Source: Candidatus Enterousia intestinigallinarum
Lineage (GTDB): Bacteria; Pseudomonadota; Alphaproteobacteria; Rs-D84
Assembly (NCBI GenBank): GCA_018716885.1
Contig: DVJI01000013.1
Coordinates: 10,794 to 74,793, forward strand
DNA: 64,000 bases
Direction of reading: 5' to 3'
The position numbers and the translations under genes were made by a program. How positions within the stretch are numbered: the stretch's first letter is position 1; every line of letters starts with the position of its first letter. The notes under the pieces were generated by a model, which made no database searches, was not told the DNA's origin, and saw nothing but the letters and a program-made list of their open reading frames with translations. Below, piece after piece: positions 253 through 63,518 of the stretch.

Positions 253-278
253 AATCCCGCGTCCGCGGGATTTTTTAT
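253..278 (+). terminator. Rho-independent terminator after plsC
   Basis: aaaatcccgcg-tcc-gcgggatttttt: a GC stem followed by a T-run. Confidence 0.6.
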
Positions 279-640
279 TCATAATAACACAGTACAGATG
301 CTGCCGACGATAAATCATATTCGAATTCCCCCGTTTCATCGGCATATTTCATACCTTTGCTAACACCAATATAACAGGATGCCCTAGTACTTGTCCCGCC
401 AGCAGACGATACCGCCAATGGTTCACCAGTGGCGACAACTGTTATCCCAGAATCAGGACACTTTGAACAATAACTCCGTCTTGGCAAAACCGTTCCATCT
501 ACCAAATAAAAATATCCTGAATTACAACTGGTATAATCACGATAATATTCCTGGCATACAGAAGGTGGCCGCACAATACTTATGGAATATGCCGAACTTG
601 TCCCAAGTATCCCAATCAGTAAAACCAGTAATCTTTTCAT
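275..640 (-). CDS. Small secreted Cys-rich protein, family member 1
   Basis: Signal peptide MKRLLVLLIGILGTSSAYS. RBS ggggga upstream. Motifs CNSGYFY, CSKCP, SCYI, and C-terminal CYYE. Confidence 0.55.
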   Translation of the reverse strand: MKRLLVLLIGILGTSSAYSISIVRPPSVCQEYYRDYTSCNSGYFYLVDGTVLPRRSYCSKCPDSGITVVATGEPLAVSSAGGTSTRASCYIGVSKGMKYADETGEFEYDLSSAASVLCYYE

Positions 641-657
641 TTTATTCTTCCCCCATA

Positions 658-1020
658 TTAGTTACCAGAAACCTGACGACACATAGTACACATAGCCGAT
701 GTTCCAGACGTTGTTGAACGCCGTATATAGCACTCCCCCGTATTTTCCGTCGGGGCACAAGACGAATAATATTGGTTATATTCGCCACGCTCATCAGATT
801 CTGCTGCCGCTGTACGTGAACAAGTTTGTACACCACTGGTGTTGGTTGTTAAACTCCAGCCATCTGGACACGACAAAATTGTTCCTGTATATCCGGCCTC
901 GCAACAATATCCACTGAAACAACTGCCCAGACATTGGGACAAATCATTACATATCTCTGCATACGATATATACGGCCACCCAGAAACCAAGCCCAACAAA
1001 AATAAAAACCTTATTTTCAT
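658..1020 (-). CDS. Small secreted Cys-rich protein, family member 2 (divergent)
   Basis: Signal peptide MKIRFLFLLGLVSGWPYISYA. RBS agggg. Motifs CEAGYTG, SCPDG, GECYI. In tandem with member 1. Confidence 0.5.
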   Translation of the reverse strand: MKIRFLFLLGLVSGWPYISYAEICNDLSQCLGSCFSGYCCEAGYTGTILSCPDGWSLTTNTSGVQTCSRTAAAESDERGEYNQYYSSCAPTENTGECYIRRSTTSGTSAMCTMCRQVSGN

Positions 1021-1081: not shown

Positions 1082-1111
1082 TTGACGCAGTGGTGAATTT
1101 TGGGGTAAAAT
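1082..1111 (+). promoter_or_regulatory. Sigma70-like promoter (TTGACG-N17-TAAAAT)
   Basis: -35 ttgacg at 1082-1087, 17-nt spacer, -10 gtaaaat. Lies immediately upstream of the conserved 93-nt cassette. Confidence 0.45.
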
Positions 1112-1123
1112 AAAATTAAATAA

Positions 1124-1216
1124 ATGCCGAAAACAAACCACCGATTAAAATCGGTGTTTTTATTTTTGAAAAAATCCCGAATTTCTGCATTTTTTTACTC
1201 TCCATTTTTGCCGAAT
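1124..1216 (+). repeat. Conserved 93-nt 5' cassette, copy A (identical to 8584..8676)
   Basis: Exact 93-nt identity to the copy at 8584. Contains hairpin caccgatt-aaa-atcggtg followed by tttttattttt. Confidence 0.9.
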
Positions 1217-1657
1217 CCAATCGGTGGATTTCTAACACTTCTGACACCAAAGGCAAATGCGGCGGCTATCCAATGTTATATGTGCCAACAAATAGTCGGC
1301 GCAAACTGGACAGTTGACGCATCTTGTACTGGAACTTCGTGCACGAATTGCAAAACCACCACAACCACCTTGAACGGTGTTATAACCACAAGAACCGCCA
1401 CAATGATTTCAAATTGTCCAACAGGTTTAACTGGTACAATCACGTGTAGTTGTAGACGCACATATTCATATAAATGCGCGGCCGGGTATTATGGACAGCC
1501 CAAATCTACTTTGCCGGGCCAATGCACAGAATGCCCAGGAAATGGAACATCAGCCGTTGGCAGTACCAGCATAACATCCTGCTATTTACCCAGTGGCACC
1601 AGTTGTTCAGACACATCTGGTACTTGCACATATACAAGTAATTGTTATTACAGTTAA
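1124..1657 (+). CDS. Small secreted Cys-rich protein, family member 3
   Basis: ORF-track ATG at 1124. Alternative TTG start at 1208 (MPNPIGGFLTLL...). Motifs CAAGYYG, CTECPGNG, ITSCYL, C-terminal NCYYS. Confidence 0.55.
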   Translation: MPKTNHRLKSVFLFLKKSRISAFFYSPFLPNPIGGFLTLLTPKANAAAIQCYMCQQIVGANWTVDASCTGTSCTNCKTTTTTLNGVITTRTATMISNCPTGLTGTITCSCRRTYSYKCAAGYYGQPKSTLPGQCTECPGNGTSAVGSTSITSCYLPSGTSCSDTSGTCTYTSNCYYS

Positions 1658-8561: not shown

Positions 8562-8583
8562 TAAATAGCATAAGAAAATATAT

Positions 8584-8676
8584 ATGCCGAAAACAAACCA
8601 CCGATTAAAATCGGTGTTTTTATTTTTGAAAAAATCCCGAATTTCTGCATTTTTTTACTCTCCATTTTTGCCGAAA
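8584..8676 (+). repeat. Conserved 93-nt 5' cassette, copy B
   Basis: 100% identical to 1124..1216. Confidence 0.9.
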
Positions 8677-9267
8677 AAAATTGGTCAATTCATATCAGCG
8701 ATAATAATTGCCACAACAATCGCAACGCCCGCTATGGCGTTCAAAGATTACAAATGCGGCTGTGGTTCACACTCTGATTTATATAATCGCCCGACCTGCT
8801 ATGCACCGCCAGATTATTTAACAGAATACTGTATAGTAAGTAAAACAAACGATACATTCACATACCGTGTACCAGACGGTATCAACGCCAAAGCGTGCAG
8901 TTTATGCTGGTGCTACGGATATACCGACAGCTGGCGTAGCGGTACCAATGGCGCCCTTGTCCGTACCGTATATACAGCCAAAGACACAAGCGCCACCCAA
9001 TGCGACTATTCATATGAAGACGAAGCCGCCTGTAATTCTGGATATTATGGATTACACGAGCCAGATTTCATGGTATACGCATGCGAGGAATGCCCATGGC
9101 TAGAAGATAAATACGGCACAATGCTGCACGGTTGGACAGAATACGCGAACACAAACACCGATATTACAGATTGCTATATAAGAAAAGAAGATACAGCCAC
9201 CGGTGTATGGTTTGAAGATGACACGGGTCAATACGCGATAACCGATGATTGTTATTATTCACTGTAA
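8584..9267 (+). CDS. Small secreted Cys-rich protein, family member 4
   Basis: ORF-track ATG at 8584. Alternative TTG start at 8668 gives signal peptide MPKKIGQFISAIIIATTIATPAMA. Motifs CNSGYYG, CEECP, ITDCYI, C-terminal DCYYSL. Confidence 0.6.
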   Translation: MPKTNHRLKSVFLFLKKSRISAFFYSPFLPKKIGQFISAIIIATTIATPAMAFKDYKCGCGSHSDLYNRPTCYAPPDYLTEYCIVSKTNDTFTYRVPDGINAKACSLCWCYGYTDSWRSGTNGALVRTVYTAKDTSATQCDYSYEDEAACNSGYYGLHEPDFMVYACEECPWLEDKYGTMLHGWTEYANTNTDITDCYIRKEDTATGVWFEDDTGQYAITDDCYYSL

Positions 9268-10615: not shown

Positions 10616-11374
10616 CTATTTTCCCAAAACGCGTTCCAATTTGGCACGCAGTTTTTTCATATCGTCATATTTTGTAAATTTTCCCTTTTCGGCAATAGAT
10701 ATTTCACCGCTTTCTTCGGACACAACCAGCACGGTTGCACCGGATACCTCGCTCATCCCCAAGGCCGCCCGATGACGCGTTCCATATTTCCAGTTCAGGT
10801 TATTTTTAGACAGCGGCAATATCGCCCCGGCATACGCAATGCGTCCACGTTCTATTATAACCGCACCATCGTGCAGTGGTGTTTTATTAAAGAATATGGT
10901 CAACAACAGTTCACTGGAAATCGTGGCATCAACTGCAACCCCTGGTTTATCAATCGCGCTTTCATCCAAAGACCCTGTAAACACAATCAGCGCCCCCGTA
11001 TGCTTGGCCGACATATATTCAACTGCAGACACTATTTCATCCAACGATTTTGTATCACGTGGACGCTGCACCCCCGCACGAAAAATGCGTCGCCATTCAT
11101 CTATATTACCCATCAGTGCCATAAATTTGCGCAATTCCGGTTGAAACACAACAACCAAACTGATAGACAAAAACAGCGCCGTCCAATGCAAAAATGTCCC
11201 CAATAAATCCAAATGCGCCCAAGACAGCACGAAACTAAGCCCCCATAAAAGCGCCAATCCCAGCAACCCGCGCACTAATCTTTCCGATGAAGTGTTTTGT
11301 ATAAAGCCGCGATAAAACACCCACAGTAAAACAACAATTATCAGAATCTGAATCAACCCAAGCCAACTAAACAC
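10616..11374 (-). CDS. cdaA: Diadenylate cyclase CdaA (c-di-AMP synthase)
   Basis: Three N-terminal TM helices. DAC domain with LHDGAVII and GTRHRAA motifs. Confidence 0.8.
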   Translation of the reverse strand: MFSWLGLIQILIIVVLLWVFYRGFIQNTSSERLVRGLLGLALLWGLSFVLSWAHLDLLGTFLHWTALFLSISLVVVFQPELRKFMALMGNIDEWRRIFRAGVQRPRDTKSLDEIVSAVEYMSAKHTGALIVFTGSLDESAIDKPGVAVDATISSELLLTIFFNKTPLHDGAVIIERGRIAYAGAILPLSKNNLNWKYGTRHRAALGMSEVSGATVLVVSEESGEISIAEKGKFTKYDDMKKLRAKLERVLGK

Positions 11375-14488: not shown

Positions 14489-14953
14489 TTATTCGCCGTA
14501 CGTAATTTGAACGACGTTTTCACCATTGGCATTACTGCACGACCCAGACGCGCCACTTTGCGTGTGACCGGACATTTCATATCCAACCGAATCAGTCCAG
14601 GCCTTGGCCACAATGGCTTGACAATCAGATTGACTCAACCCAGTTATTGATACTATAAACTGACGACTGTTTGACGGGTTCACAGAAACTTCATACGTAC
14701 CACCATACGGATTTTGGTTCGACATACCAATAGCACCAAATACAGTCGCGCTGTTTATGCTGGAATAATCATCGTACTGATTATAAATACTGCGCACCTG
14801 GGTTACAATCTGCAAAACTTCGTCATTGACACTGTTGCGCTTTTGCAAATTCATCGCACTGGAAATAGCGGCAATCGCCCCAACAGTAATCACACCCATA
14901 ATTGCCAACACACCCATCATTTCAATCATAGAACGTCCGGATTCTTGTTTCAT
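14489..14953 (-). CDS. Type IV pilin / pseudopilin-like protein
   Basis: N-terminus MKQESG|RSMIEMMGVLAIMGVI with Glu at +5: a prepilin cleavage/methylation-type leader. Followed by a hydrophobic helix and a C-terminal Cys pair. Confidence 0.55.
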   Translation of the reverse strand: MKQESGRSMIEMMGVLAIMGVITVGAIAAISSAMNLQKRNSVNDEVLQIVTQVRSIYNQYDDYSSINSATVFGAIGMSNQNPYGGTYEVSVNPSNSRQFIVSITGLSQSDCQAIVAKAWTDSVGYEMSGHTQSGASGSCSNANGENVVQITYGE

Positions 14954-18452: not shown

Positions 18453-20432
18453 ATGGTTGAACAAAACACACATTCTTATGATGCATCAGATATCCAGGTA
18501 CTGGAAGGTTTGGAACCCGTACGCCTGCGCCCTGGTATGTACATTGGCGGTACCGATGAAAAGGCGTGGCACCACCTGCCGGTGGAGATTATGGATAACT
18601 CTATTGACGAGGCCGTCGCCGGTTTCGCCAAGAAAATCACTGTAAATTTAATTGATGCAAAAACAATAGAAATCACAGACGATGGTCGTGGTATTCCGGT
18701 TGACGAACACCCAAAATTCCCGGGCAAATCCGCGTTAGAGGTTATTTTAACCACTCTGCATTCTGGGGGTAAATTTAATAATAATGTTTACAAGACCAGT
18801 GGCGGTCTGCACGGCGTGGGCAGTTCTGTTGTCAATGCCCTGTCATCTGAAATGATTGTAACTATTTCACGCGACGGTTATGAATGGACGCAAACGTTTT
18901 CACGTGGCAAGCCAACCAGTAAAATGACCCGCGGCGCAGCCACAAAAAATCACGGAACAAAAATCAGATTTACAATCGACGACGAAATATTTGGCGCCGC
19001 CGCGGTATTCAAACCGGTCAAGATTTACCGTATGGCACGCGCAAAATCGTTCTTGTCACGTGGTGTGCGCATAGAATGGATTTGTAATCCAGAATTATTG
19101 ACCGAAGATATGAACATCCCCGCCCAGACGGAATTTTACTATCCGAACGGCGTGGCGGACTTCCTGGACGAAAAGACCCGCGACAAACCGCGTATTTTGC
19201 CAAAAATATTCAGTGGCACGGTTGATTTTCCCGACGATTCTGGTCGCGTTGAATGGGCATTGACATTTTTAACGGACGAAAACGGCGCTGCGTCGGATGA
19301 TGGATTTTTCGCATCATATTGTAATACTATTGCAACAATTGACGGCGGTACGCACGAAACCGGATTCAAATCCGCAATCACCCGCGGTATCAAGGCATAC
19401 GGGGACAAGGTAAATAATAAATCCGCCGCGTCAATCATCAGCGACGACGTATTTGATTCCGTTGCGGCGATTGTATCAGTGTTTTATAAAACACCACAAT
19501 TCCTGGGCCAGACCAAGGAAAAATTATCCAACCCGGAAATCGCGCGCTATACCGAAAACGCATTACGTGATCCGTGGGAAATGTTTTTGGCGTCCGACCC
19601 AAAAACGGCAAACGCATTACTGGAATTTGTAATAAACCTGGCAAATGCGCGTATAAAAACCAAACAGGTAAAGGAAATCGCCCGCAAAACCCCGACAAAA
19701 CGTATTCGTATGCCGGCGAAATTGGCAGATTGCTCCAAGCACGGTATCGACGGTACGGAATTATTTATAGTCGAAGGTGAATCCGCCGGTGGCACCGCCA
19801 AACAGGCGCGCGACCGCGCGACCCAGGCGATTATGCCCCTGCGCGGCAAGGTGTTAAACGTCATATCAAATTCCGACGAACGCTTCAGCGCGAACAAGGA
19901 ACTAAATGAACTGATTGACATTATCGGTGCCGGCACCGCACGGGATTGGGATGAAAGTAAACTGCGCTATGAAAAAATCATCGTTATGACCGATGCCGAC
20001 GTTGACGGCAGTCATATTGCATCACTACTGATGGCGTTTTTCTATCAGGTTATGCCCCAGTTGATTTACGGTGGCCACCTGTATTTGTCGTGCCCACCGC
20101 TGTATAAACTGACGTGCGGAACCGAATCGGTCTATATCGACACGGACGAAGAACTGGAACAACTGAAAAACACCAAATATAAAAACAAGAAAGTTGAAAT
20201 TTCCCGGTTTAAGGGTCTGGGTGAAATGATGCCCAATCAGTTAAAAGAAACAACAATGTCGCCAAAAACACGGCGTCTGATACGCGTTGACCTGCCACCG
20301 CGCACGGATGACGGTGCCGAAGACACCGAAAAAACACGCACGATTGTATCCGAACTGATGGGTAAAAAACCGGAATTTCGATTCAAGTTCATTACTGAAC
20401 ACGCCCAGTTTGTAAAAGATCTGTTCGTATAA
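18453..20432 (+). CDS. parE: Type IIA topoisomerase ATPase subunit, likely topoisomerase IV subunit B
   Basis: GHKL ATPase, TOPRIM (EGESAGG), C-terminal domain. At 659 aa it fits ParE better than GyrB. Confidence 0.75.
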   Translation: MVEQNTHSYDASDIQVLEGLEPVRLRPGMYIGGTDEKAWHHLPVEIMDNSIDEAVAGFAKKITVNLIDAKTIEITDDGRGIPVDEHPKFPGKSALEVILTTLHSGGKFNNNVYKTSGGLHGVGSSVVNALSSEMIVTISRDGYEWTQTFSRGKPTSKMTRGAATKNHGTKIRFTIDDEIFGAAAVFKPVKIYRMARAKSFLSRGVRIEWICNPELLTEDMNIPAQTEFYYPNGVADFLDEKTRDKPRILPKIFSGTVDFPDDSGRVEWALTFLTDENGAASDDGFFASYCNTIATIDGGTHETGFKSAITRGIKAYGDKVNNKSAASIISDDVFDSVAAIVSVFYKTPQFLGQTKEKLSNPEIARYTENALRDPWEMFLASDPKTANALLEFVINLANARIKTKQVKEIARKTPTKRIRMPAKLADCSKHGIDGTELFIVEGESAGGTAKQARDRATQAIMPLRGKVLNVISNSDERFSANKELNELIDIIGAGTARDWDESKLRYEKIIVMTDADVDGSHIASLLMAFFYQVMPQLIYGGHLYLSCPPLYKLTCGTESVYIDTDEELEQLKNTKYKNKKVEISRFKGLGEMMPNQLKETTMSPKTRRLIRVDLPPRTDDGAEDTEKTRTIVSELMGKKPEFRFKFITEHAQFVKDLFV

Positions 20433-21084: not shown

Positions 21085-22566
21085 TTATTGGATACCGACG
21101 CGGAACTCATCGCCCCAGCCGGCCACTACCTGGCCGCCTATGGTGCATTGTATGTCTTCAAACCCGTTTTCTACCTGGTTCTTTTTTACTACATTACTGG
21201 TTATCAGACCACCGGCCGTACCCAATACAACCCCAGCAATGGAATCAGATAACAGACGCGATGTGTTAAAGTTGCCTTCTTCATTACGCCACACCGTCAG
21301 CTTTAACCCAGACGCTATATCATCCAGTTTTGATACTGCGCTTTCTATACGTTCCCGCGCCACTGCCTGTTGGTCTGTTGTTACAGTTGTTGTACTAGAT
21401 GCGCTGCCACCACTGGTTGTTGCATCGACACAGGCGGTACCTTCGGGATTAAATGTTTTACCAACCTCCATACAATAACACTGACCCGTTGTATAATTCC
21501 AGTTTGCACCAGTTATCAGCAAACATTTCTGAATTGCCGGATTCATTGCACAAACACTGCCGTTCCAAGAATACTGCTGATTGGTGCAACGACACTGTTT
21601 ATTCACGTCATCCCAATACGCGCCCGATGCGATACTGGCCTGCGATGTGCATTTTTGTTGCAATGCGGCCGCATCGGTCAAATCACATCTGTCGCCATTG
21701 CGTACATAATTTACATCATCCAAACATACACAGACATTATTTTCCACACGCAGATTTTTTGCACTGTCGCAAGCACACGCGCCGCCCGTCCACACTCCGC
21801 CGGAATTTTCACAGGCCGCCTTGCGTTGCTGGTTCAGGCGATTATTTTCCTCCTCGCGACGTCTGCGGTTTTCTTCATCTATAACAGATTGCTTTTTATT
21901 GCACTGCTTAGCCGTGGCATCAAATTCATAATCGCTGCTGATACATTCACAGGCCCCGCCACCGGAAACCAAACGCAGATTTTTTGCACTGTCACAAGTA
22001 CACGCGCTGCCCGTCCACGCTCCGCCGGAATCGACACAACGCTGCTCGCGATTATCTGCTATACATTCTGTTTTGGCGGCATTCGGCATATAACCAGAAT
22101 TGCATTTTACATATATACAGGATGCCCGACCAATAAAGGCCTCCAAATCACCCAAACTAAATGAAGAAGTCGCGACACCGTCAATACGGTATGTTTTCTT
22201 TGCATTAATTAAACTTATACCACCAAGACCACTGCCCGATTGTAATTCCGAATCTTTACAAAAATGTCCCGGCTCATAATTTACAAATTTATTTGTGAAC
22301 CCGGTTGAACATTGGTACAAACCAACTACATCCCCAACCCCGTCAAGATACGGGACAACTTCATCATCACTGCAGGAATTTGGCCCTGGCCCGCAAAACC
22401 AACACTGATTACCCCCAATATCAGCGGTAAGCCAAGCATTAGGATCGAAGAAACTTGTATCACCACAACTTAACAAAGTGCATTTTGCATCCGCATTATG
22501 TGGCAGAACCGCAAATCCGCACAATATCACTACGAACAACAATAATTTTTTCATATTCTCCCCCAT
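21085..22566 (-). CDS. Large secreted Cys-rich repeat protein with a C-terminal hydrophobic anchor
   Basis: Signal peptide MKKLLLFVVILCGFAVLPHNADA. A CNSGY motif. Two near-identical CENSGGVWTGGACACDSAKNLRV repeats. 37 Cys. Confidence 0.6.
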   Translation of the reverse strand: MGENMKKLLLFVVILCGFAVLPHNADAKCTLLSCGDTSFFDPNAWLTADIGGNQCWFCGPGPNSCSDDEVVPYLDGVGDVVGLYQCSTGFTNKFVNYEPGHFCKDSELQSGSGLGGISLINAKKTYRIDGVATSSFSLGDLEAFIGRASCIYVKCNSGYMPNAAKTECIADNREQRCVDSGGAWTGSACTCDSAKNLRLVSGGGACECISSDYEFDATAKQCNKKQSVIDEENRRRREEENNRLNQQRKAACENSGGVWTGGACACDSAKNLRVENNVCVCLDDVNYVRNGDRCDLTDAAALQQKCTSQASIASGAYWDDVNKQCRCTNQQYSWNGSVCAMNPAIQKCLLITGANWNYTTGQCYCMEVGKTFNPEGTACVDATTSGGSASSTTTVTTDQQAVARERIESAVSKLDDIASGLKLTVWRNEEGNFNTSRLLSDSIAGVVLGTAGGLITSNVVKKNQVENGFEDIQCTIGGQVVAGWGDEFRVGIQ

Positions 22567-27455: not shown

Positions 27456-27977
27456 TTATTCGGTATAATAACACTTTGGATCATATACAAAAGAACCAGT
27501 TGAATCAGATCCTGATGCAATATAACAATCTGTTATTTTTGTACTGCCCGCAGTGGACATTCCGCCGTCTGGACACCTTGTGCAGTTTGCACTGGTTGGC
27601 ACAGTGATACTTGTAGTCAGATTCACACCATAATACCCCATAGTACATCGTACTTGATATCGTGGTGAACACTCACACGTTAAACGATTTTGAGAATAAC
27701 TGGAAATCTTATACTGCCACCCTGTCCCGCCAACACGCCAAATATTTGACACTGTTGGGCACGGATCACAATCGGGGTCATCAATATCACCCCCGCCAGG
27801 GTCAGGCGTTGGACATCCCGCTTGTTCACAGGTTTCTGTTGACAACCGGCAACAAGGGGCCGAACCAGCCGTCACAGGACATTGAATAGAATATATTCCC
27901 GAACAAGTTCGCCCAACGGCATCGGCAACAAACGCGCACGCAACTGCTGCGCTGACAATAAAACAGCTACATTTCAT
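27456..27977 (-). CDS. Small secreted Cys-rich protein, family member 5
   Basis: Signal peptide MKCSCFIVSAAVACAFVADA. Motifs CTMGYYG, CTRCPDGG, ITDCYI, C-terminal KCYYTE. Confidence 0.6.
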   Translation of the reverse strand: MKCSCFIVSAAVACAFVADAVGRTCSGIYSIQCPVTAGSAPCCRLSTETCEQAGCPTPDPGGGDIDDPDCDPCPTVSNIWRVGGTGWQYKISSYSQNRLTCECSPRYQVRCTMGYYGVNLTTSITVPTSANCTRCPDGGMSTAGSTKITDCYIASGSDSTGSFVYDPKCYYTE

Positions 27978-28000
27978 TTTCAATTCCCTTTTGTTTTTGT

Positions 28001-28030
28001 TAAACAAAAAACCGCCACGGAATTGGCGGT
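28001..28030 (-). terminator. Intrinsic terminator on the minus strand
   Basis: Minus strand reads ccgccaattccgtggcgg + ttttttgtttt. Lies about 35 nt upstream of the member-5 start codon. Confidence 0.5.
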
Positions 28031-28291
28031 CGGGGATTGAAAAATCATATTTAGGAATGACCCCGCGATTTTTATGGTTTCCCACTGTTGTATAATCGCG
28101 AACCCCCGACCGGTTAAACAGTCGGGCGATAAAACATACGGCGCAAACCCGCGCCGACGCTTTGTCAGTCGGATTACAATGCGATAACCGCATTGCCTAA
28201 ATACAGGATTTTTCAGGTCCCGAACCCAAATCCCTTTGGATTCAATATTCAGTATATTTTAACGTTCCAATAAAAACAAGACATTTAATCA
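28031..28291 (-). ncRNA. Candidate small RNA (unclassified)
   Basis: 260-nt structured, non-coding stretch bounded by two intrinsic terminators. No ORF and no RBS. Confidence 0.2.
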
Positions 28292-28327
28292 AAAAAAAAC
28301 ACCATCATATGATGGTGTTTTTATTTT
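28292..28327. terminator. Bidirectional intrinsic terminator after the secretin gene
   Basis: aaaaaaaaacaccatcatatgatggtgtttttatttt. Confidence 0.65.
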
Positions 28328-28337
28328 ATTGTTTGCA

Positions 28338-29966
28338 CTAGTTCAATGGTGCGCCCCAATGTTGCTGTATGGTGCGTTCCGCATCCATCGGGCTGACCAA
28401 GACCTGTGGTGTCAGGATAACAACCAACACATCGCGCGTCGCCGTTGTTTCACGCGACCCAGACAGTGCCATAAAGTCCGGATCCCCTAACCCATAGCGA
28501 GTGTCATTATTTTCCTGCTTTTCAAATCCGGATACAACCAACATCTGGCCGGATTCCATAATAACCTCTTGCATAAAGCTACGTTCTTCTACCTCTGGCA
28601 GCTGCAGGGTTACTTCGCCAATCGTCTGTGTTGACATACGCAACAGTTCACGAACCGACATTCTGAACAGCAATAATATCTTGCCATTTTCCAAAACGTT
28701 CGGCAGTAACTGCATTGAAAATCCGGTTTCCAAATCGTCCTGGTCAACGGTACTGGATTCAACGGTCGTAAAGTTGCGCGATTCGAAACGTTTGATATAT
28801 CCAGTTGTACGTGTATTGTTCACCGGCGCGACACGATTGTTTCGCGTTGTAACGCCAACATTAGTAACCAAAGACACCTTGCCCTGCTTGGCCAACGCCT
28901 GAATCAAGGCATCTGTACCCGCCAATGCGGACAATGAACCGTTTTGAATCTGATCCTGGGTGTATGCACCGGCAACTGTTTCGGTACCCTCCAGATGGGT
29001 CGCACCAGTCGCCGCAGACACCGCATTGGACAAAACGGCAATGTTCATAGAACTGGCCTCGGTACTGGTCAGATTGTTTTTCGGATTTGCAACGATATTC
29101 AACCCGGACGCAGAATTTATCGCCGCCGCCAGATTTAACCCAAACGCCGAATCGTTGGATATAGATACCTGCAGAACCTTTACATCAATGGTAACCAACT
29201 GTGACAGACGTTTGTTTTGGCGATCAATATAATCGGACACACGTGCCAATGTTGACGGTGGCGCCGTAACAGTTATTGTGCCCAAACTGCGCGACACAGT
29301 AAAGTTCGCGTTATCAACATCACCAATGATTGTTTCTATGGCATTTTCAATTTCATCCCATTCCTTCAGCGTGGATTCCAACGACACAGTATTTCCGTCA
29401 TCGGTTTCAACAGCAGTCTGGTATGAAACATCTGTTCCCAACGCATATAAAGTGAAGGTTCTTGTTTCCGTTTCATAGAAAACAATAGAAGATTTATCAT
29501 AATACCACAATAAATCCAAGTCCGTCGCCACCTGGGACAACAGGCCTGACAAACTGCCAGTATATGCAACGTTTATAGTTTTCTTTAATTTTTCAGAATT
29601 TATCTGGTTATCAATTTTGACCGGTATGCCAGTTATTGAAGTGATATCATTGGCCAGCATACTTAAACTGACGGGTTCATTCAACAAAATCGTAATTCCC
29701 GTACTGGTTTCAAACTGCGACGGCAGATTGTTACGATGTTCCAATAATGTTGACGATGCCCCCAACCAGACACCTTCGGACATAGAAACGGTATCGCCAC
29801 TGGCCACCTTGGCCGGCGGATTTTTAGACATTTCGAACGCATCGTATGCGTTTATAAAGTCCTGGTCAACAGATGCCGCAACTTTGGCGGATTCCTTGGT
29901 GGCGCATCCCGCAACCATTGCGCCCAAAACGCCGCACATAACGAAAAATTTTATTGGGTTGGTCAT
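28338..29966 (-). CDS. Secretin-family outer-membrane lipoprotein (type IVb pilus / PilN-BfpB-like)
   Basis: Lipobox MVAGC. C-terminal secretin domain (VTIDVKVLQVS..., GFEKQENNDTRYGLGDP..., LVVILTPQVL). Confidence 0.6.
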   Translation of the reverse strand: MTNPIKFFVMCGVLGAMVAGCATKESAKVAASVDQDFINAYDAFEMSKNPPAKVASGDTVSMSEGVWLGASSTLLEHRNNLPSQFETSTGITILLNEPVSLSMLANDITSITGIPVKIDNQINSEKLKKTINVAYTGSLSGLLSQVATDLDLLWYYDKSSIVFYETETRTFTLYALGTDVSYQTAVETDDGNTVSLESTLKEWDEIENAIETIIGDVDNANFTVSRSLGTITVTAPPSTLARVSDYIDRQNKRLSQLVTIDVKVLQVSISNDSAFGLNLAAAINSASGLNIVANPKNNLTSTEASSMNIAVLSNAVSAATGATHLEGTETVAGAYTQDQIQNGSLSALAGTDALIQALAKQGKVSLVTNVGVTTRNNRVAPVNNTRTTGYIKRFESRNFTTVESSTVDQDDLETGFSMQLLPNVLENGKILLLFRMSVRELLRMSTQTIGEVTLQLPEVEERSFMQEVIMESGQMLVVSGFEKQENNDTRYGLGDPDFMALSGSRETTATRDVLVVILTPQVLVSPMDAERTIQQHWGAPLN

Positions 29967-29997
29967 ATCTTTATTTTCTCCTACGGCAAACTATGAC

Positions 29998-30906
29998 TTA
30001 TTCTTCTGTTGTGGAAATCACCAAAACGCGATTTCCCTTATAGAATTTAGCATACGGTATCGGTGTTGCGCGTGCAAAGTTTCGAACCAGCGCAGACGCC
30101 ACATCGACAAAGCGACCCTTGAACACGGCACTGGCCTCAATCGGATATTCACGCGATGTCGCCCAAACCAAATCCCAGCCCTCTTTATTGCACCAATCTT
30201 GCAACACTTCACGCAGTGTCTGACCATTGGCAACGACCCAGGAACGCACCTGGTCGGTTAAAGTAACTGGTGCTTCGGCATCGGCAGAAATATCAACAGC
30301 GATTTCCGCATCCAACGCTTCTGTTGCTTCGTTCGCGGCGGCAATTTCTTCCTCACTCATACCAAATTTAGCCATAAATGCTTCATATCCGTCGCGATAC
30401 TGAGTGCAATCCTGGCGACTGCTGCGCGACACTGACAAAACGGTGCCCCCGTCATCTTCCAACATTTCGCGCGACAGCAACGGCATTTCCGCCCCACTTT
30501 TGCACGGATCATCAAATCCGGCCGGCACCTGGGTCCCGTGCAGCATATTCGCCCCACCAGACCAACCGTTAAAATCACCATCCGTCGTACGTCCCAAATT
30601 GAAATTATTTTCAACAACTAAATCCGCACCGATTTTTGAAACTATACGAATATTATCCTTGTTCTTATTACCTGAACAGGCCCCGTCTTCACACGCGACG
30701 GTCACGTCCGCATCTGACCCCGGAATCGGCCACACAGGCACCTGCTGAGTATTATCAACCTGAACGGTTTGCGTTTCGGTTGCAACAGGTTCAGTGGAAT
30801 AATAAACCTCTGACGTGACGACCTGGGGCAGATTTGTATTTTCTGCTGCGAAACAGTATCCGGCCGCGGTTGCAAACATTGCGACAATAAGAATCTTGCG
30901 GAACAT
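29998..30906 (-). CDS. Periplasmic protein with a C-terminal TcpQ/PilL-like domain
   Basis: Start MFRKILIVAMFATAAGYCFA. The C-terminus WCNKEGWDLVW...KGNRVLVIST resembles the TcpQ domain found next to T4b secretins. Confidence 0.35.
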   Translation of the reverse strand: MFRKILIVAMFATAAGYCFAAENTNLPQVVTSEVYYSTEPVATETQTVQVDNTQQVPVWPIPGSDADVTVACEDGACSGNKNKDNIRIVSKIGADLVVENNFNLGRTTDGDFNGWSGGANMLHGTQVPAGFDDPCKSGAEMPLLSREMLEDDGGTVLSVSRSSRQDCTQYRDGYEAFMAKFGMSEEEIAAANEATEALDAEIAVDISADAEAPVTLTDQVRSWVVANGQTLREVLQDWCNKEGWDLVWATSREYPIEASAVFKGRFVDVASALVRNFARATPIPYAKFYKGNRVLVISTTEE

Positions 30907-31093
30907 AAAAACTTCCTTTCCTGAACGTTTTACATATTTATTACATATTATTATAACAATTTGACCGAATCTGTGCAAGATTAAAACGCACTGAAAATAA
31001 CGGATAAATACACACGCAAAGATAAAATCGCACGAATCGGCAAAAGATGCTATACTAAAACCCGATAAAGGCAAAATACCGCGGGGGACACAT

Positions 31094-41228: not shown

Positions 41229-42803
41229 TTAAAACTTGATTCCGACACCGACGCCAACCTTGTACCCGATTGCGTCGTTGTCATAAATAATCCCCAGTGA
41301 TATGTTTCCACCCGCCCTGTCAGCAATGGATGTTACACCCAAACGCAACGATGTATCCAAACGACCAGACACATCGCCACTAATACGAATCCCATAGTTA
41401 TATTCTATGTCATAACCATCGGCGATATTAAATATAAGGTCCGCGCCTGCACCAGTAAAAATTTCCAAATCGGACGCCGAAAGTATTTTTGCATAATCCG
41501 CACCAACACGAACAAATGGCGCCACTGTAAAATTTTCTAGCGGTGCAAAACCAATTCCAAAATCGGCAACCGCATACATAGAAACACCGTTTGGATTTAA
41601 TACTATTTCACCATTGTCAAACACCGCCCCAACATCAAACTTTGAAATCGTTGCACCGGCAACACCACGTGCAAAAATCGAATTATAAAAATACGCTATA
41701 TGCACGTTTCCGCCATATAGCGCAATTTTATATTCGTCCAAATCGTTTGTAAAATCCATTGTCACGGCATATACTGACGCTGCGATTTTCAGATTTCTAG
41801 ATATATCAAACGACACATCCGCGCCCACACCAAACGCATTGAAATCATCAGAATATAAAAAGATTGGTGCAACACCGACACCGTCTGATAACGTGGCAAC
41901 TTCTATCATTTCGAACATATTAAATGTTCGTACTGCGTCCATCATACGAATCGGATTCATACGCACCGTGCGCGACATAATAGATTCCAATTCGGCCATT
42001 GTTGTGGCGCGGTCTAATGCGGCTATCAGTTTATCGTCAGGATTTTCCACACGAATACTATTCAAAAACATCCCGGCGTCATTTTGTAAAATCTTGAAAT
42101 AATCGGTATCACGAACCACATCAACATACAGGGCATTATCTGATATGCGTGCCGCGACGCGATACAATGGATTGGTATTTTCGGAATATATGCTAATTGT
42201 GCCGTCCCCATAAACATTTGACATAATCGGCCCATTGCCAAACACGGATAAATCATCTGCATACAGTGTGACATTTCCGCGTAATTCTATATCCGGCGCA
42301 TCAGCGGCAGGAAACATACGCGCCCCACCATCATCCAAATCCAGTACGGAATTATACAGAACTATTCTGTCCGCATCGCCAGACATATTGCGTAATCCAA
42401 ACCACGATACGCGATTGGCACTTTCAACAATAATTTCGTATTTTCCCGCAACACCCAATGGATTCAAATCGGCATTATTGCGCACCAGCTGTATAACAGA
42501 ACTGTTATCCCCAGTTGCGTCAAACATCGCATTTATGTTCCCGGTGTTTTGAACATATACATCACATCCGTCACACACGTTCACGCGCCCGTTAATTGTA
42601 CCAGCATTTGTCAGTACCAACGAATTTATGACATTTACCTGATTTACATCAACGACAACCGAATCGGCAATCACCGTGTTATTTTCAATATTCCACACAT
42701 CGCCACGTATATCACTGCCAATATAGTCAACAGCGGCGTCCGCCACATCAGGCACCACCGACACAACTGCACATATAAAAAGAAAAATCCATCCCTTTCC
42801 CAT
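41229..42803 (-). CDS. Autotransporter-like outer-membrane protein
   Basis: Signal peptide MGKGWIFLFICAVVSVVPDVADA. Asn/Val-rich passenger region. C-terminal beta-barrel ending ...GVGVGIKF. Confidence 0.55.
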   Translation of the reverse strand: MGKGWIFLFICAVVSVVPDVADAAVDYIGSDIRGDVWNIENNTVIADSVVVDVNQVNVINSLVLTNAGTINGRVNVCDGCDVYVQNTGNINAMFDATGDNSSVIQLVRNNADLNPLGVAGKYEIIVESANRVSWFGLRNMSGDADRIVLYNSVLDLDDGGARMFPAADAPDIELRGNVTLYADDLSVFGNGPIMSNVYGDGTISIYSENTNPLYRVAARISDNALYVDVVRDTDYFKILQNDAGMFLNSIRVENPDDKLIAALDRATTMAELESIMSRTVRMNPIRMMDAVRTFNMFEMIEVATLSDGVGVAPIFLYSDDFNAFGVGADVSFDISRNLKIAASVYAVTMDFTNDLDEYKIALYGGNVHIAYFYNSIFARGVAGATISKFDVGAVFDNGEIVLNPNGVSMYAVADFGIGFAPLENFTVAPFVRVGADYAKILSASDLEIFTGAGADLIFNIADGYDIEYNYGIRISGDVSGRLDTSLRLGVTSIADRAGGNISLGIIYDNDAIGYKVGVGVGIKF

Positions 42804-42910
42804 AGGATGAGAGATTAGCACATAAGATTTTTTTCTTAAAGTTTTTTATAAAAATCACACCCCAGGCGTCCCCGGGGTGTAATTATATACATCTTGTGAT
42901 GCCGGACAAC

Positions 42911-44034: not shown

Positions 44035-45660
44035 TTAACTATGCAGTTTCAAAAACGATTTCAGCAATGTTCGCGGCGAATACTGATGCTTGCTTATCGG
44101 TGTCAAATCCTTGTCCACACCCATCAGATAGTAAACGGCCCGCTGTGCGGCACGAACGGAATATTCCATTGTGAAAACAACATCATCGGGAACTTCGGCA
44201 AATTGACTGATGAACGCAAAGTTTTCATATCCTTGTGGAATAACCAGCGGTCTGTCGCCAATTTTACGTGGCTGAAACTGCGATGTGATATACGGCATAA
44301 TCGATGTACGGCAAATAACGCCACGCATCATTTCGGCCTGGTCACGTTTTGGTATATGCAACTGTCCCATCAGTTCCGTCATTATTTCACGACCGGTGCA
44401 CTTGTACATCGGCTTTTTCACATAATCACCGTCCACAAACATATTTAACGCATAACCCCAAAATATCTGGGTGTCCATCGGCTGATTTTTGAAATGCGGC
44501 TGGCGCGCAACGACAAAAGACAGACGCCAAGCAGAATCCTTAAACGTAACCAACGCGCCGCCCCCTGGGTGGTTGCGTGTAAAGCGCTGGATATATTCAA
44601 ACAGTTTCGGATTGTTGTTTATCGTCACCGTGAACGACATCCACATCGATTCGTCCGGACGCGAACAAAACACATCTGGGTCACCGAATTCAGGACGCCC
44701 GTTAGCAATCTTTTTCCACAATTCAAACGATGGCGCGGTCTGTGCAGTATTATATTTTGCAACAGTATCAGTGGACGCTTCATCCGAATTATCAGTCATA
44801 CATCCGTTTGTAAATGTAACTATATCCGTCGGCGCAACATTTATGGTATGCTTTTTGCCGCGTTGCACATATTCTATTTTTGTGGCCAGGTTTTCACCCT
44901 TTTTATTCTGGTCAAACAGAATATCCGTCACACGCGCCCCCAGAATAATTTGCACCCCCTGCCCGCGTAACCAATCGACCATCGGTTTTACAATCGAATC
45001 GTGCTGGTTGTACGCAGTACGCGCCACGCCCGCCAGCGTGTGTATTCGCGGAAATTCGTGCATAAATCGTATCATATACCGACGCAGTTCCGCCGCACTG
45101 GACCACGGCTGAAACGCAAATGTCGTCTGCCACATAAACCAAAAATTAGTTTTGAAAAAATGCGGACCAAATACCTCGTCGATTCGTTTGGCACCCAATG
45201 ATTTTTCTGTTTCCATCAATATCAGTTTTTCCATATCCATACGATCGTCCGGGGAAAAGCCCATTTGTGTGACATCAACCTTGCCACCATTTTTATCAAC
45301 CAGACGCGCCCGCGAATGAGTTTTGAATTCCTGATTGTATTCTAAAAATTCTTCTTCCAGTGATATGTCATCAAATTCAATCGACGGTATTTCCGTCATA
45401 ACATCCTGCAGACATTCGTATGTCGGTATATTCAGCATACGCCCGCCACGAATCATATACCCGCGCTTTGCGTCACCGGCACCGTCCAAACTGCCACCGT
45501 CAACGTCCAGCGATTCGAAAATTTTTATATTTTTTCCCGGTACACGTGCATCACGAATCAAATATATTGCCGCCGCCAATGAACCGATACCAGAACCAAT
45601 CATATAAACATTTGTCGTCGCTGGGCGACGCTTTATTGAACTTTTTCCTGCTTTGGCCAT
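44035..45660 (-). CDS. Oleate hydratase (MCRA / myosin-cross-reactive antigen family)
   Basis: FAD GxGxxG motif (MIGSGIGSLAAA). Long MCRA-family core. Start MAKAGK. Confidence 0.8.
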   Translation of the reverse strand: MAKAGKSSIKRRPATTNVYMIGSGIGSLAAAIYLIRDARVPGKNIKIFESLDVDGGSLDGAGDAKRGYMIRGGRMLNIPTYECLQDVMTEIPSIEFDDISLEEEFLEYNQEFKTHSRARLVDKNGGKVDVTQMGFSPDDRMDMEKLILMETEKSLGAKRIDEVFGPHFFKTNFWFMWQTTFAFQPWSSAAELRRYMIRFMHEFPRIHTLAGVARTAYNQHDSIVKPMVDWLRGQGVQIILGARVTDILFDQNKKGENLATKIEYVQRGKKHTINVAPTDIVTFTNGCMTDNSDEASTDTVAKYNTAQTAPSFELWKKIANGRPEFGDPDVFCSRPDESMWMSFTVTINNNPKLFEYIQRFTRNHPGGGALVTFKDSAWRLSFVVARQPHFKNQPMDTQIFWGYALNMFVDGDYVKKPMYKCTGREIMTELMGQLHIPKRDQAEMMRGVICRTSIMPYITSQFQPRKIGDRPLVIPQGYENFAFISQFAEVPDDVVFTMEYSVRAAQRAVYYLMGVDKDLTPISKHQYSPRTLLKSFLKLHS

Positions 45661-45771
45661 AATGAAAACTCCTTTGTTTTGCCAACGATATAATACCAAT
45701 TTATCGTCTAAATATTCCACAGGACAAAAAGCCCAACCCCACAAAATCGTGCACATAGCACGTTTTTATAA

Positions 45772-62850: not shown

Positions 62851-63357
62851 TTAATTAATTTCAATCTCTTCTTCAACCTCTTCTTCAAAAGAATCAGAAT
62901 CATCGTAACGGCAATCTTCTGAAAAAACATAACTGCCAGCACTGTCCGCACATATGGCATCAACGCCATAATAACACCCTGTTATACCTGCGCCTTCGGT
63001 ACTGTGCGGACCACGAAGACACCCATTCAACGTCGGACAATCCAAACACTGGGCCAATATTCCCACCATTCCATTGTGATATTGCCCATCTTCACAAACC
63101 AACTCTTCTTCAATGCATTCACAGGTGTCTGGGTCCACTGTACCAAAACATATTTTTGCTGGGTCACATACACATTCAAGTGCATCTGCATCCCAAACCT
63201 TGCCATCGCCACAGTCTGGTTCAACCTCTCCCATACAATAATCGGGGTCATATTCACATTGCAAACAACTGGCACCTGAATATTTCACACATTTATAGCA
63301 ATCTGGGCATACCGTATCCACCGCCACAGATGCACCCGTTGAAAAACCAATCAACAT
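62851..63357 (-). CDS. Cys-rich acidic protein (related to the Cys-rich family)
   Basis: 26 Cys. GITGCYYG motif. C-terminal poly-Glu tail. Weak signal peptide. Confidence 0.4.
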   Translation of the reverse strand: MLIGFSTGASVAVDTVCPDCYKCVKYSGASCLQCEYDPDYCMGEVEPDCGDGKVWDADALECVCDPAKICFGTVDPDTCECIEEELVCEDGQYHNGMVGILAQCLDCPTLNGCLRGPHSTEGAGITGCYYGVDAICADSAGSYVFSEDCRYDDSDSFEEEVEEEIEIN

Positions 63358-63518
63358 AATAAACCCACCGATTTATTTCGGCACAACAGAAAGGAATAAA
63401 AATGCAGTTTTTCAGTGTTTTCAAAACAATAAAAACACCGATATTAATCGGTGGTTTATTTTCGGCATATCTTTTGTGTACATTATATCAATCTGTGCGC
63501 CCCACCCGCAAGACTTTT

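Follow-up and report, generated by a model that had tools for sequence, protein, structure and literature searches.

The 64,000-nt stretch of Candidatus Enterousia intestinigallinarum DNA analysed here (the window; contig DVJI01000013.1, assembly GCA_018716885.1) carries two adjacent reverse-strand genes, encoding a lipoprotein secretin and a periplasmic protein with a TcpQ domain, that most probably belong to a type IVb pilus (T4bP) whose other components lie elsewhere on the chromosome. The host belongs to Rs-D84, an uncultured order with genomes of 0.75–1.0 Mb that lack respiration and many biosynthetic pathways, for which a partner-dependent lifestyle has been suggested (PMC12306168). Homologues are very numerous in gut metagenomes, and those with names are recorded as 'Alphaproteobacteria bacterium' or 'Candidatus Enterousia'. 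The features of the pair are as follows.

28338..29966, reverse strand: gene for a lipoprotein secretin of the pilN/bfpB/tcpC type, 542 aa (Pfam, NCBIfam and BfpB matches)
28398..28898, reverse strand: C-terminal secretin domain (beta-barrel and gate), residues 357–523 (Pfam, BfpB alignment)
29745..29798, reverse strand: putative counterpart, in the LG segment of the secretin, of the BfpG-binding region, GDTVSMSEGVWLGASSTL (weak BfpB alignment)
29904..29918, reverse strand: lipobox M-V-A-G-C, with Cys21 the predicted acylated residue 1 of the mature secretin (sequence reading)
29998..30906, reverse strand: tcpQ/bfpG/pilL-like gene for a 302-aa periplasmic secretin partner (Pfam TcpQ, BfpG match)
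30013..30246, reverse strand: TcpQ domain, residues 221–298, a predicted N0-like ring subunit binding the secretin (Pfam, BfpG match)

A lipoprotein secretin and its TcpQ-type partner

The secretin begins with MTNPIKFFVMCGVLGAMVAGC, which contains the lipobox V-A-G-C (...GAMVAG-C21), and the position of the lipobox cysteine is invariant in an alignment of diverse secretin relatives (16 of 16). Pfam Secretin (PF00263) matches residues 357–523 with an E-value of 1.1e-13 (51.6 bits, cutoff 27.5); the chain stops 19 residues past this domain, without a C-terminal S-domain. Among curated families the top match is NCBIfam TIGR02520, 'PilN family type IVB pilus formation outer membrane protein' (247.6 bits, E-value 2.1e-73), and identity to annotated plasmid PilN and BfpB secretins is 25–29% over 96% of the length.

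Only one solved structure is matched convincingly by either protein of the pair: 9u5s, the 17:17 BfpB–BfpG secretin complex of the bundle-forming pilus of enteropathogenic Escherichia coli (EPEC) (Pei et al. 2025, PMC12531336), to which the secretin aligns with an E-value of 6.1e-39 and the 302-aa partner, through BfpG, with 6.8e-15. The alignment to BfpB falls into three parts, namely an N-terminal LG segment, the N0–N3 region and the secretin domain, the last aligned with BfpB residues 352–528. In BfpB, the BfpG-binding region is the LG stretch, in which S41, T43, I46–I48, S51 and F53 matter in pilus biogenesis (PMC12531336). Our alignment of the LG segment to BfpB residues 14–97 is weak (domain i-E 0.11); it sets TVSMSEGVWLGASS of the window protein opposite VSKTDSIYIGNSS of BfpB, with V-W-L against I46-Y47-I48. 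Within this candidate binding stretch, W-L-G-x-x-S is invariant among diverse secretin relatives.

The partner starts with a type I signal peptide without a lipobox, MFRKILIVAMFATAAGYCFA/AE, followed by a variable linker, a middle module (residues 57–180), a second variable linker and the C-terminal TcpQ domain. Pfam TcpQ (PF10671) matches residues 221–298 with an E-value of 4.9e-18 (65.4 bits, cutoff 27), and the domain is 41% identical to the C terminus of a TcpQ-domain protein from a Thalassospira plasmid. In alignments of relatives, the TcpQ domain and the middle module are near-invariant and the two linkers differ in length. These profile and structure matches confirm what a preliminary description of this DNA had read from the letters, namely a 542-aa secretin with an MVAGC lipobox, a TcpQ/PilL-like C terminus in the 302-aa protein and, together, a type IVb-style pairing of lipoprotein secretin and TcpQ-type partner.

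The middle module (30367..30738) is clade-specific and carries the motifs WPxxGSDAD, GWSGGAN and MPLL..E.LEDDGG, with two to four cysteines in Enterousia. Outgroups have shorter forms, the aligned plasmid TcpQ proteins have none, and BfpG (114 aa) and TcpQ (~150 aa) are too short to accommodate it.

The two genes lie on the same strand, tcpQ-like gene first, with a gap of 31 nt, and are flanked by two predicted signals.

30950..30977, reverse strand: candidate sigma-70-like promoter, TGCACA-16 nt-TATAAT, with TG before the -10 hexamer (consensus match only)
28295..28322, both strands: bidirectional intrinsic terminator, a 12-bp stem AAAAACACCATCATATGATGGTGTTTTT and a T run (hairpin prediction)

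The candidate promoter, the best in the region with 10 of 12 consensus positions, is ~45 nt upstream of the tcpQ-like start codon, and the terminator hairpin, with T-runs on both strands, is 16 nt past the secretin stop. With a promoter-like site upstream and a terminator after the secretin, the pair appears to be a self-contained two-gene operon.

Conservation of the locus and an ancestral cluster

Neither a T2SSE ATPase, a T2SSF platform protein, PilO, PilP nor an A24 peptidase was found in the window by Pfam searches of essentially all open reading frames (ORFs) of at least 140 aa, and tblastn of two annotated plasmid type IVb clusters against the window matched only PilN, TcpQ and the pilin N terminus, in agreement with the preliminary description, which had seen no assembly ATPase, platform or peptidase gene near the pair. 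The remaining sizeable ORFs encode housekeeping proteins or secreted proteins of unknown function. Housekeeping genes include tolB, dnaN, dnaA, gyrB/parE-family, dnaJ, uvrC, dprA, plsY, rpsT, sufBC, sufS/E, gatAB, tatC, lolA, recJ, a penicillin-binding protein gene and thrS; Rfam finds two tRNAs only.

Related loci were collected by scanning one genome per species with an alignment of four secretin sequences. Of the stretches matched, 251 contained relatives, and the best 80 of these were kept, one locus per genome record with 10-kb flanks, and all 80 carry both a TcpQ-family and a secretin gene. Seventy-two are Enterousia-type loci, with secretins 70–94% identical to that of the window and with adjacent, intact tcpQ-like and secretin ORFs. 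Every one of these 72 has a 181-aa protein (h181) and/or SufBC on one flank, and those of sufficient extent have rpsT, plsY, a gene for a protein of ~300 aa, dprA and dnaA on the other. No PilO, ATPase or PilR platform gene lies within 10 kb of the pair in any of them. A mobile-element origin of the pair was considered and rejected, because the housekeeping synteny is kept across 72 species.

Between the window and its relatives the secretin is 84–94% identical, equal to GatA, GatB and a 659-aa GyrB-family protein (18453..20432) and higher than DnaA, DprA, PlsY and SufB. Conservation on a par with GatA and GatB in a reduced genome indicates strong purifying selection.

Outside Enterousia, the picture changes. 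The nearest outgroup locus (L040; secretin 64% identical to the window's) is a contiguous chromosomal cluster in the order tcpQ-like (305 aa), secretin (542 aa), PAP_PilO (422 aa), PilP-like (227 aa), T2SSE ATPase (552 aa) and T2SSF platform (364 aa); gyrB lies beyond the platform gene. The same six-gene block stands among housekeeping genes in five further loci from alphaproteobacterial metagenome-assembled genomes (L007, L008, L011, L012 and L042; secretin 37–47% identical). Judged by the contiguity of the block in these outgroups, the window pair corresponds to genes one and two of an ancestral cluster of six.

Broken clusters were also seen in two distant loci, each with a secretin 44% identical to the window's. 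In ZodW_Metabat.18 (L009), tcpQ–secretin is followed by plsY–dprA, with no ATPase within 10 kb, and in Rickettsiaceae bacterium 4572_127 (L010), pilR lies on the opposite strand, upstream of tcpQ–secretin. This T4bP cluster has probably fragmented more than once.

A second locus with motor and platform genes

An alignment of the six outgroup ATPases was scanned against metagenome contigs. The 62 best ATPase contigs, from gut, rumen and termite metagenomes and several of them 0.3–0.7 Mb long, carry an ATPase 67–76% identical to that of L040. On most of them the ATPase is surrounded by PilO, a PilP-like gene and PilR, with fewer of these on short contigs; no TcpQ or secretin gene occurs on any of the 62. 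The context, as seen in L129, L134 and L140, is lpxK–lpxC–small lipoprotein–pilO–pilP–ATPase–pilR–189 aa–gyrB, with PAP_PilO, T2SSE and T2SSF confirmed by Pfam in L129. The pilR–gyrB flank is common to this second locus and the L040 cluster.

The exact proteins of this half-cluster occur in a protein collection, where members of the ATPase cluster that have names are recorded as 'Alphaproteobacteria bacterium'. For each exact protein variant, the collection records the size of the longest contig that carries it, and we compared these sizes between the two loci. Ten exact sizes are common to secretin or TcpQ variants and to variants of PilR, PilP, the ATPase, LpxC or the 189-aa neighbour: 930420, 946946, 933405, 714117, 649119, 455875, 421271, 420168, 392932 and 230775 bp. 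The size 392932 belongs to JGI contig Ga0134545_1000002, with secretin P0052 at 262,102–264,330, and 230775 to ERZ28619853 scaffold_9. A control validates this comparison: the secretin and TcpQ genes, which as neighbours must share contigs, likewise have variants with common sizes (946946, 933405, 455875 and 531516), and about 10^4 pairwise comparisons over about 10^6 values would give ~0.01 coincidences by chance. The shared exact sizes therefore place both loci on one near-genome-sized contig in close relatives (secretin 87% identical). Comparing P0052 secretin contig names with the ATPase loci gave no direct match, and blastn of the secretin loci against the ATPase loci returned only similarity between GyrB-family paralogues.

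Congeners hold a PilO-type protein, a T2SSE ATPase and a T2SSF platform together with the secretin pair (shared contigs; Pfam in L129). The 'orphan' label that the preliminary description gave the secretin is consequently true only locally, since pilO–pilP–ATPase–pilR lies on the same contigs in congeners and all six genes are contiguous in outgroups, and its alternative suggestion, a pilus encoded elsewhere, is the one that stands. Of the genes it proposed to locate, the ATPase and platform genes turned up at the second locus in congeners and the peptidase gene in none of the fetched loci. The pair probably looks orphan only because, in this lineage, the genes for motor and platform are housed at another chromosomal site and the pilin gene at a third.

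Assignment to the Tad/Flp (type IVc) group, raised by NCBI 'TadA' names on the ATPases, was rejected in view of PAP_PilO, the PilN-type secretin, the TcpQ partner and the PilS/bundlin-type pilins. Lower-ranked ATPase matches (54–57% identical) include complete clusters with secretin and pilins from other lineages. One complete related cluster (L158, 12602..16591) lies on a 230-kb metagenome contig (ERZ809074 NODE-16). Four tandem pilin genes follow its pilR (two were tested and both match Pfam PilS/Bundlin), then comes a second, small T2SSE ATPase, possibly for retraction, and farther along lie genes for a VWA-domain protein and a protein kinase.

A type IVb-like pilin gene

A single gene in the window has a prepilin motif.

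14489..14953, reverse strand: type IVb-like prepilin of 154 aa, a single gene flanked by rluD-like and uvrC genes (motif, TcpA match)

Its product starts MKQESG/RSMIEMMGVLAIMGV..., with a 6-aa leader, Gly at -1, Arg at +1, Glu at +5 and a hydrophobic alpha1-N helix, and has a C-terminal pair of cysteines, Cys110 and Cys139, predicted to form a disulfide. The top solved match is TcpA (8uhf, E-value 1.3e-3), in an alignment that runs through 'FIVSITGLSQSDCQAIVA', past the N-terminal helix to the first D-region cysteine. Homologues of 29–33% identity stand immediately after pilR in complete clusters of other gut bacteria, and the one tested (L158, 13247..13816) matches Pfam PilS and Bundlin. The pilin-like gene noticed earlier is thus genuine and type IVb-like, and its product is probably the pilin subunit of the same machine as the secretin pair.

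A probable split pilus and its alternatives

We conclude, with considerable confidence, that the pair is the outer-membrane module of a split chromosomal T4bP, and the role of this pilus in a partner-dependent bacterium is likely to be adhesion, aggregation or attachment to a partner. Behind this reading stand homology, operon anatomy, conservation, the split arrangement and the co-residence of the two loci on single contigs in congeners. By homology to BfpB–BfpG, the lipoprotein secretin would multimerise into a gated channel anchored by its N-terminal acyl-Cys and the extended LG segment. Within that segment, the conserved stretch DTVSxSExxWLGxSS would be the binding site for the TcpQ domain of the 302-aa protein, and TcpQ-domain subunits would form a hoop around the N3 ring, stabilising the assembly. 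The second locus in the ~0.9-Mb genome would supply PilO, the PilP-like protein, the T2SSE-family ATPase and the T2SSF platform, and the pilin would come from the third locus, in the window at 14489..14953. This split arrangement would be derived from the ancestral contiguous six-gene cluster that close outgroups still keep.

Several observations weigh against this conclusion. The TIGR02520 score of the secretin lies below the equivalog cutoff of 287.65 bits; judged by its sequence, the protein is a divergent PilN relative and not an NCBI-defined equivalog. An AlphaFold2 model of the 302-aa protein, built with 20 close homologues, has no confident fold; the predicted strand–helix order of its TcpQ domain, beta-alpha-beta-beta-alpha-beta-beta, looks N0-compatible, at a mean confidence (pLDDT 35.5) too poor to rely on. 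The pilin leader of 6 residues and the Arg at +1 are atypical of type IVb pilins, in which the leader is typically ~13–30 residues and the +1 residue Met, Leu or Val, and there is no upstream alternative start within the ORF. The shared-contig link was obtained in a group of close relatives with an 87% identical secretin. In the species of the window, the link is one of composition, the window being among the closest tetranucleotide matches (r ~0.92) of the GC-matched ATPase loci L091 and L113, a supportive but weak signal driven by GC content; from the congeners and this similarity we infer a second locus in the genome of the window as well. Neither the window nor any of the fetched loci yielded a prepilin peptidase (Peptidase_A24). 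Finally, the published survey of Rs-D84 genomes does not mention type IV pili (PMC12306168).

The same split machine could instead serve mainly in DNA uptake (competence or nucleotide scavenging) or in secretion of a soluble factor. T4bP systems do export proteins, the toxin-coregulated pilus (TCP) system secreting TcpF, and dprA lies three genes from the secretin, an arrangement also present in Enterousia-type loci and, at greater distance, in L009. Reliance on partner-derived metabolites, inferred in the published Rs-D84 genome analysis (PMC12306168), would also suit uptake. However, dprA is widespread in non-competent bacteria and stands here among plsY, dnaA, rpsT and other origin-proximal housekeeping genes, neither comEA nor comEC was seen in the window or the loci, and no candidate secreted substrate is conserved beside either locus; we regard such a main role as unlikely. 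A broader version of the split-pilus reading would make the T4bP the main surface organelle of Enterousia and Rs-D84, attaching to a partner cell or taking DNA and nutrients from it, like the pili of Patescibacteria epibionts; the middle module, on that view, would adapt the secretin collar to this lineage, perhaps by anchoring it to peptidoglycan or another envelope component. We offer this tentatively, as possible by analogy but doubtful.

Two further explanations dispense with a working pilus. The preliminary description had proposed that the pair might be a conduit for Cys-rich proteins, which would make it a truly orphan, ATPase-independent outer-membrane channel. A Cys-rich secreted-protein gene does lie directly downstream of the secretin, as that description said (27456..27980, reverse strand; 174 aa with 18 Cys), and the window holds several paralogues, but between the two genes lie a strong terminator and 357 nt of spacer. 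Moreover, the secretin–rpsT gap, compared in 57 related loci (one per species) that include the two genes, is 59–200 nt long and empty in about half of them and measures 0.35–4.6 kb in the remainder, mostly filled with unrelated genes and in a few without a sizeable ORF, and strains with an identical secretin protein differ in downstream content. This variability among species and strains makes the Cys-rich adjacency in the window a species-level accident, with no functional link. Motor and platform genes share contigs with the pair in congeners, and no secretin is known to work without an inner-membrane machine. The conduit idea finds no support, and an orphan channel is highly improbable. 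The other explanation is that the pair is an evolutionary relic, the non-functional first two genes of a decayed T4bP operon. Its descent from the six-gene cluster and the ongoing reduction of the genome would fit, but 72 species keep both ORFs intact, the secretin, conserved at 70–94%, is among the most conserved proteins of the region, the lipobox, binding-region motif and TcpQ domain are near-invariant, and the partner genes are retained; a relic has next to no probability.

Cys-rich genes and other window contents

The gap downstream of the secretin (27981..28337 in the window; the same slot in L001–L086) is a hypervariable insertion slot across Enterousia species. Its cargo comprises Cys-rich secreted proteins, the largest 936 aa long with 81 Cys, or repeat proteins with the C terminus ...PSGTPPTGQVFIWFN. 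The Cys-rich secreted paralogues in the window are the following.

275..640, reverse strand
658..1020, reverse strand
1124..1657, forward strand
8584..9267, forward strand
21085..22566, reverse strand
27456..27980, reverse strand
62851..63357, reverse strand

Several of them have a common C-terminal motif, CY[IL]...[DS]TG...CYY[ST]E. The family has no convincing Pfam or NCBIfam match, with a sub-threshold match or two, and the motif is almost absent from the 72 related loci; being species-restricted, it is useless as a lineage marker for ATPase contigs. Directly upstream of three of the Cys-rich genes lies a cassette of 92–128 nt with 89–100% identity (1110..1237, 8570..8697 and, on the reverse strand, 63428..63468), composed of a terminator-like hairpin (ACCACCGATTAAAATCGGTGT and a T run) and an A/T-rich leader. 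The N terminus 'MPKTNHRLKSVFLF...' common to the ORFs at 1124 and 8584 is probably translated non-coding cassette, so the true starts of these ORFs probably lie further downstream.

Three other genes deserve mention. A DisA_N/DAC diadenylate cyclase (cyclic di-AMP synthase; 10616..11374, reverse strand) stands beside an AsmA-like gene in this reduced-genome alphaproteobacterium. A 530-aa protein (41229..42821, reverse strand) with a weak match to the autotransporter beta-domain and a strong homologue of MCRA, a fatty-acid hydratase (44035..45756, reverse strand), each have a possible function in interaction with a host or partner.

Discussion

On sequence grounds, the proteins of this locus belong, as divergent members, to known families, and the machine too is of a known kind. 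The pair appears closest in build to EPEC BfpB–BfpG. Both systems have a lipoprotein secretin with an acyl-Cys, N0 and N3 and a secretin domain but lacking an S-domain, and a partner that is not a lipoprotein and carries a TcpQ domain, predicted to be N0-like here; the window secretin also has a putative LG segment, with V-W-L-G in place of I-Y-I-G in the candidate binding region. It differs in sequence (~25% identity), in the length of the partner (302 aa with a middle module, against 114 aa for the deposited BfpG chain) and in genomic setting: the bfp genes are on the EAF plasmid, whereas the window genes are chromosomal, in a ~0.9-Mb genome, and apart from the motor genes.

The PilL–PilN pair of IncI1/R64-type thin pili, along with related clusters on plasmids or ICEs, is the counterpart indicated by the top curated family of the secretin and by gene order. 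Canonical plasmid clusters have the TcpQ gene directly before pilN, followed by pilO2, pilP, ATPase, platform and pilin, and the window keeps the first two in order. Methylovorus and Thalassospira PilN are 27–29% identical to the secretin over the full length, and the Thalassospira plasmid partner is likewise ~310 aa long with a C-terminal TcpQ domain. In contrast to these systems, the window has a sub-cutoff equivalog score, no conjugation context, shufflon or PilV, and no adjacent PilO, PilP, PilQ or PilR, and the partner has a type I signal peptide instead of a lipobox.

Vibrio cholerae TCP (TcpC–TcpQ, TcpA) lends the Pfam TcpQ family the name of its partner and provides the top solved match of the window pilin, but TCP genes are contiguous on a pathogenicity island and those considered here are split. 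The TcpA leader has 25 residues, against 6 in the window pilin. In its dispersal, the system resembles type IVa pili, in which the pilQ operon lies apart from pilBCD and pilA and the components of one machine are spread over several chromosomal loci; type IVa systems differ in having PilQ with AMIN domains and a PilF pilotin in place of a lipoprotein secretin and a TcpQ partner.

What is new here is modest: the chromosomal retention, under strong selection, of such a system in a reduced-genome gut lineage that has not been reported to have pili; the distribution over at least three loci of a T4bP core that is normally contiguous; and an additional, clade-specific module in the TcpQ-type partner. 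Although T4bP genes usually stand together on mobile elements, they can also be dispersed on a chromosome, and 'orphan' calls made from gene neighbourhoods therefore need genome-wide checks. An apparent orphan secretin resolves, on the reading we favour, into an ordinary but split type IVb pilus. A reduced-genome and probably partner-dependent lineage of gut alphaproteobacteria would accordingly keep a type IVb machine under strong selection, which adds a candidate organelle of attachment or uptake to a poorly understood and widespread gut group.

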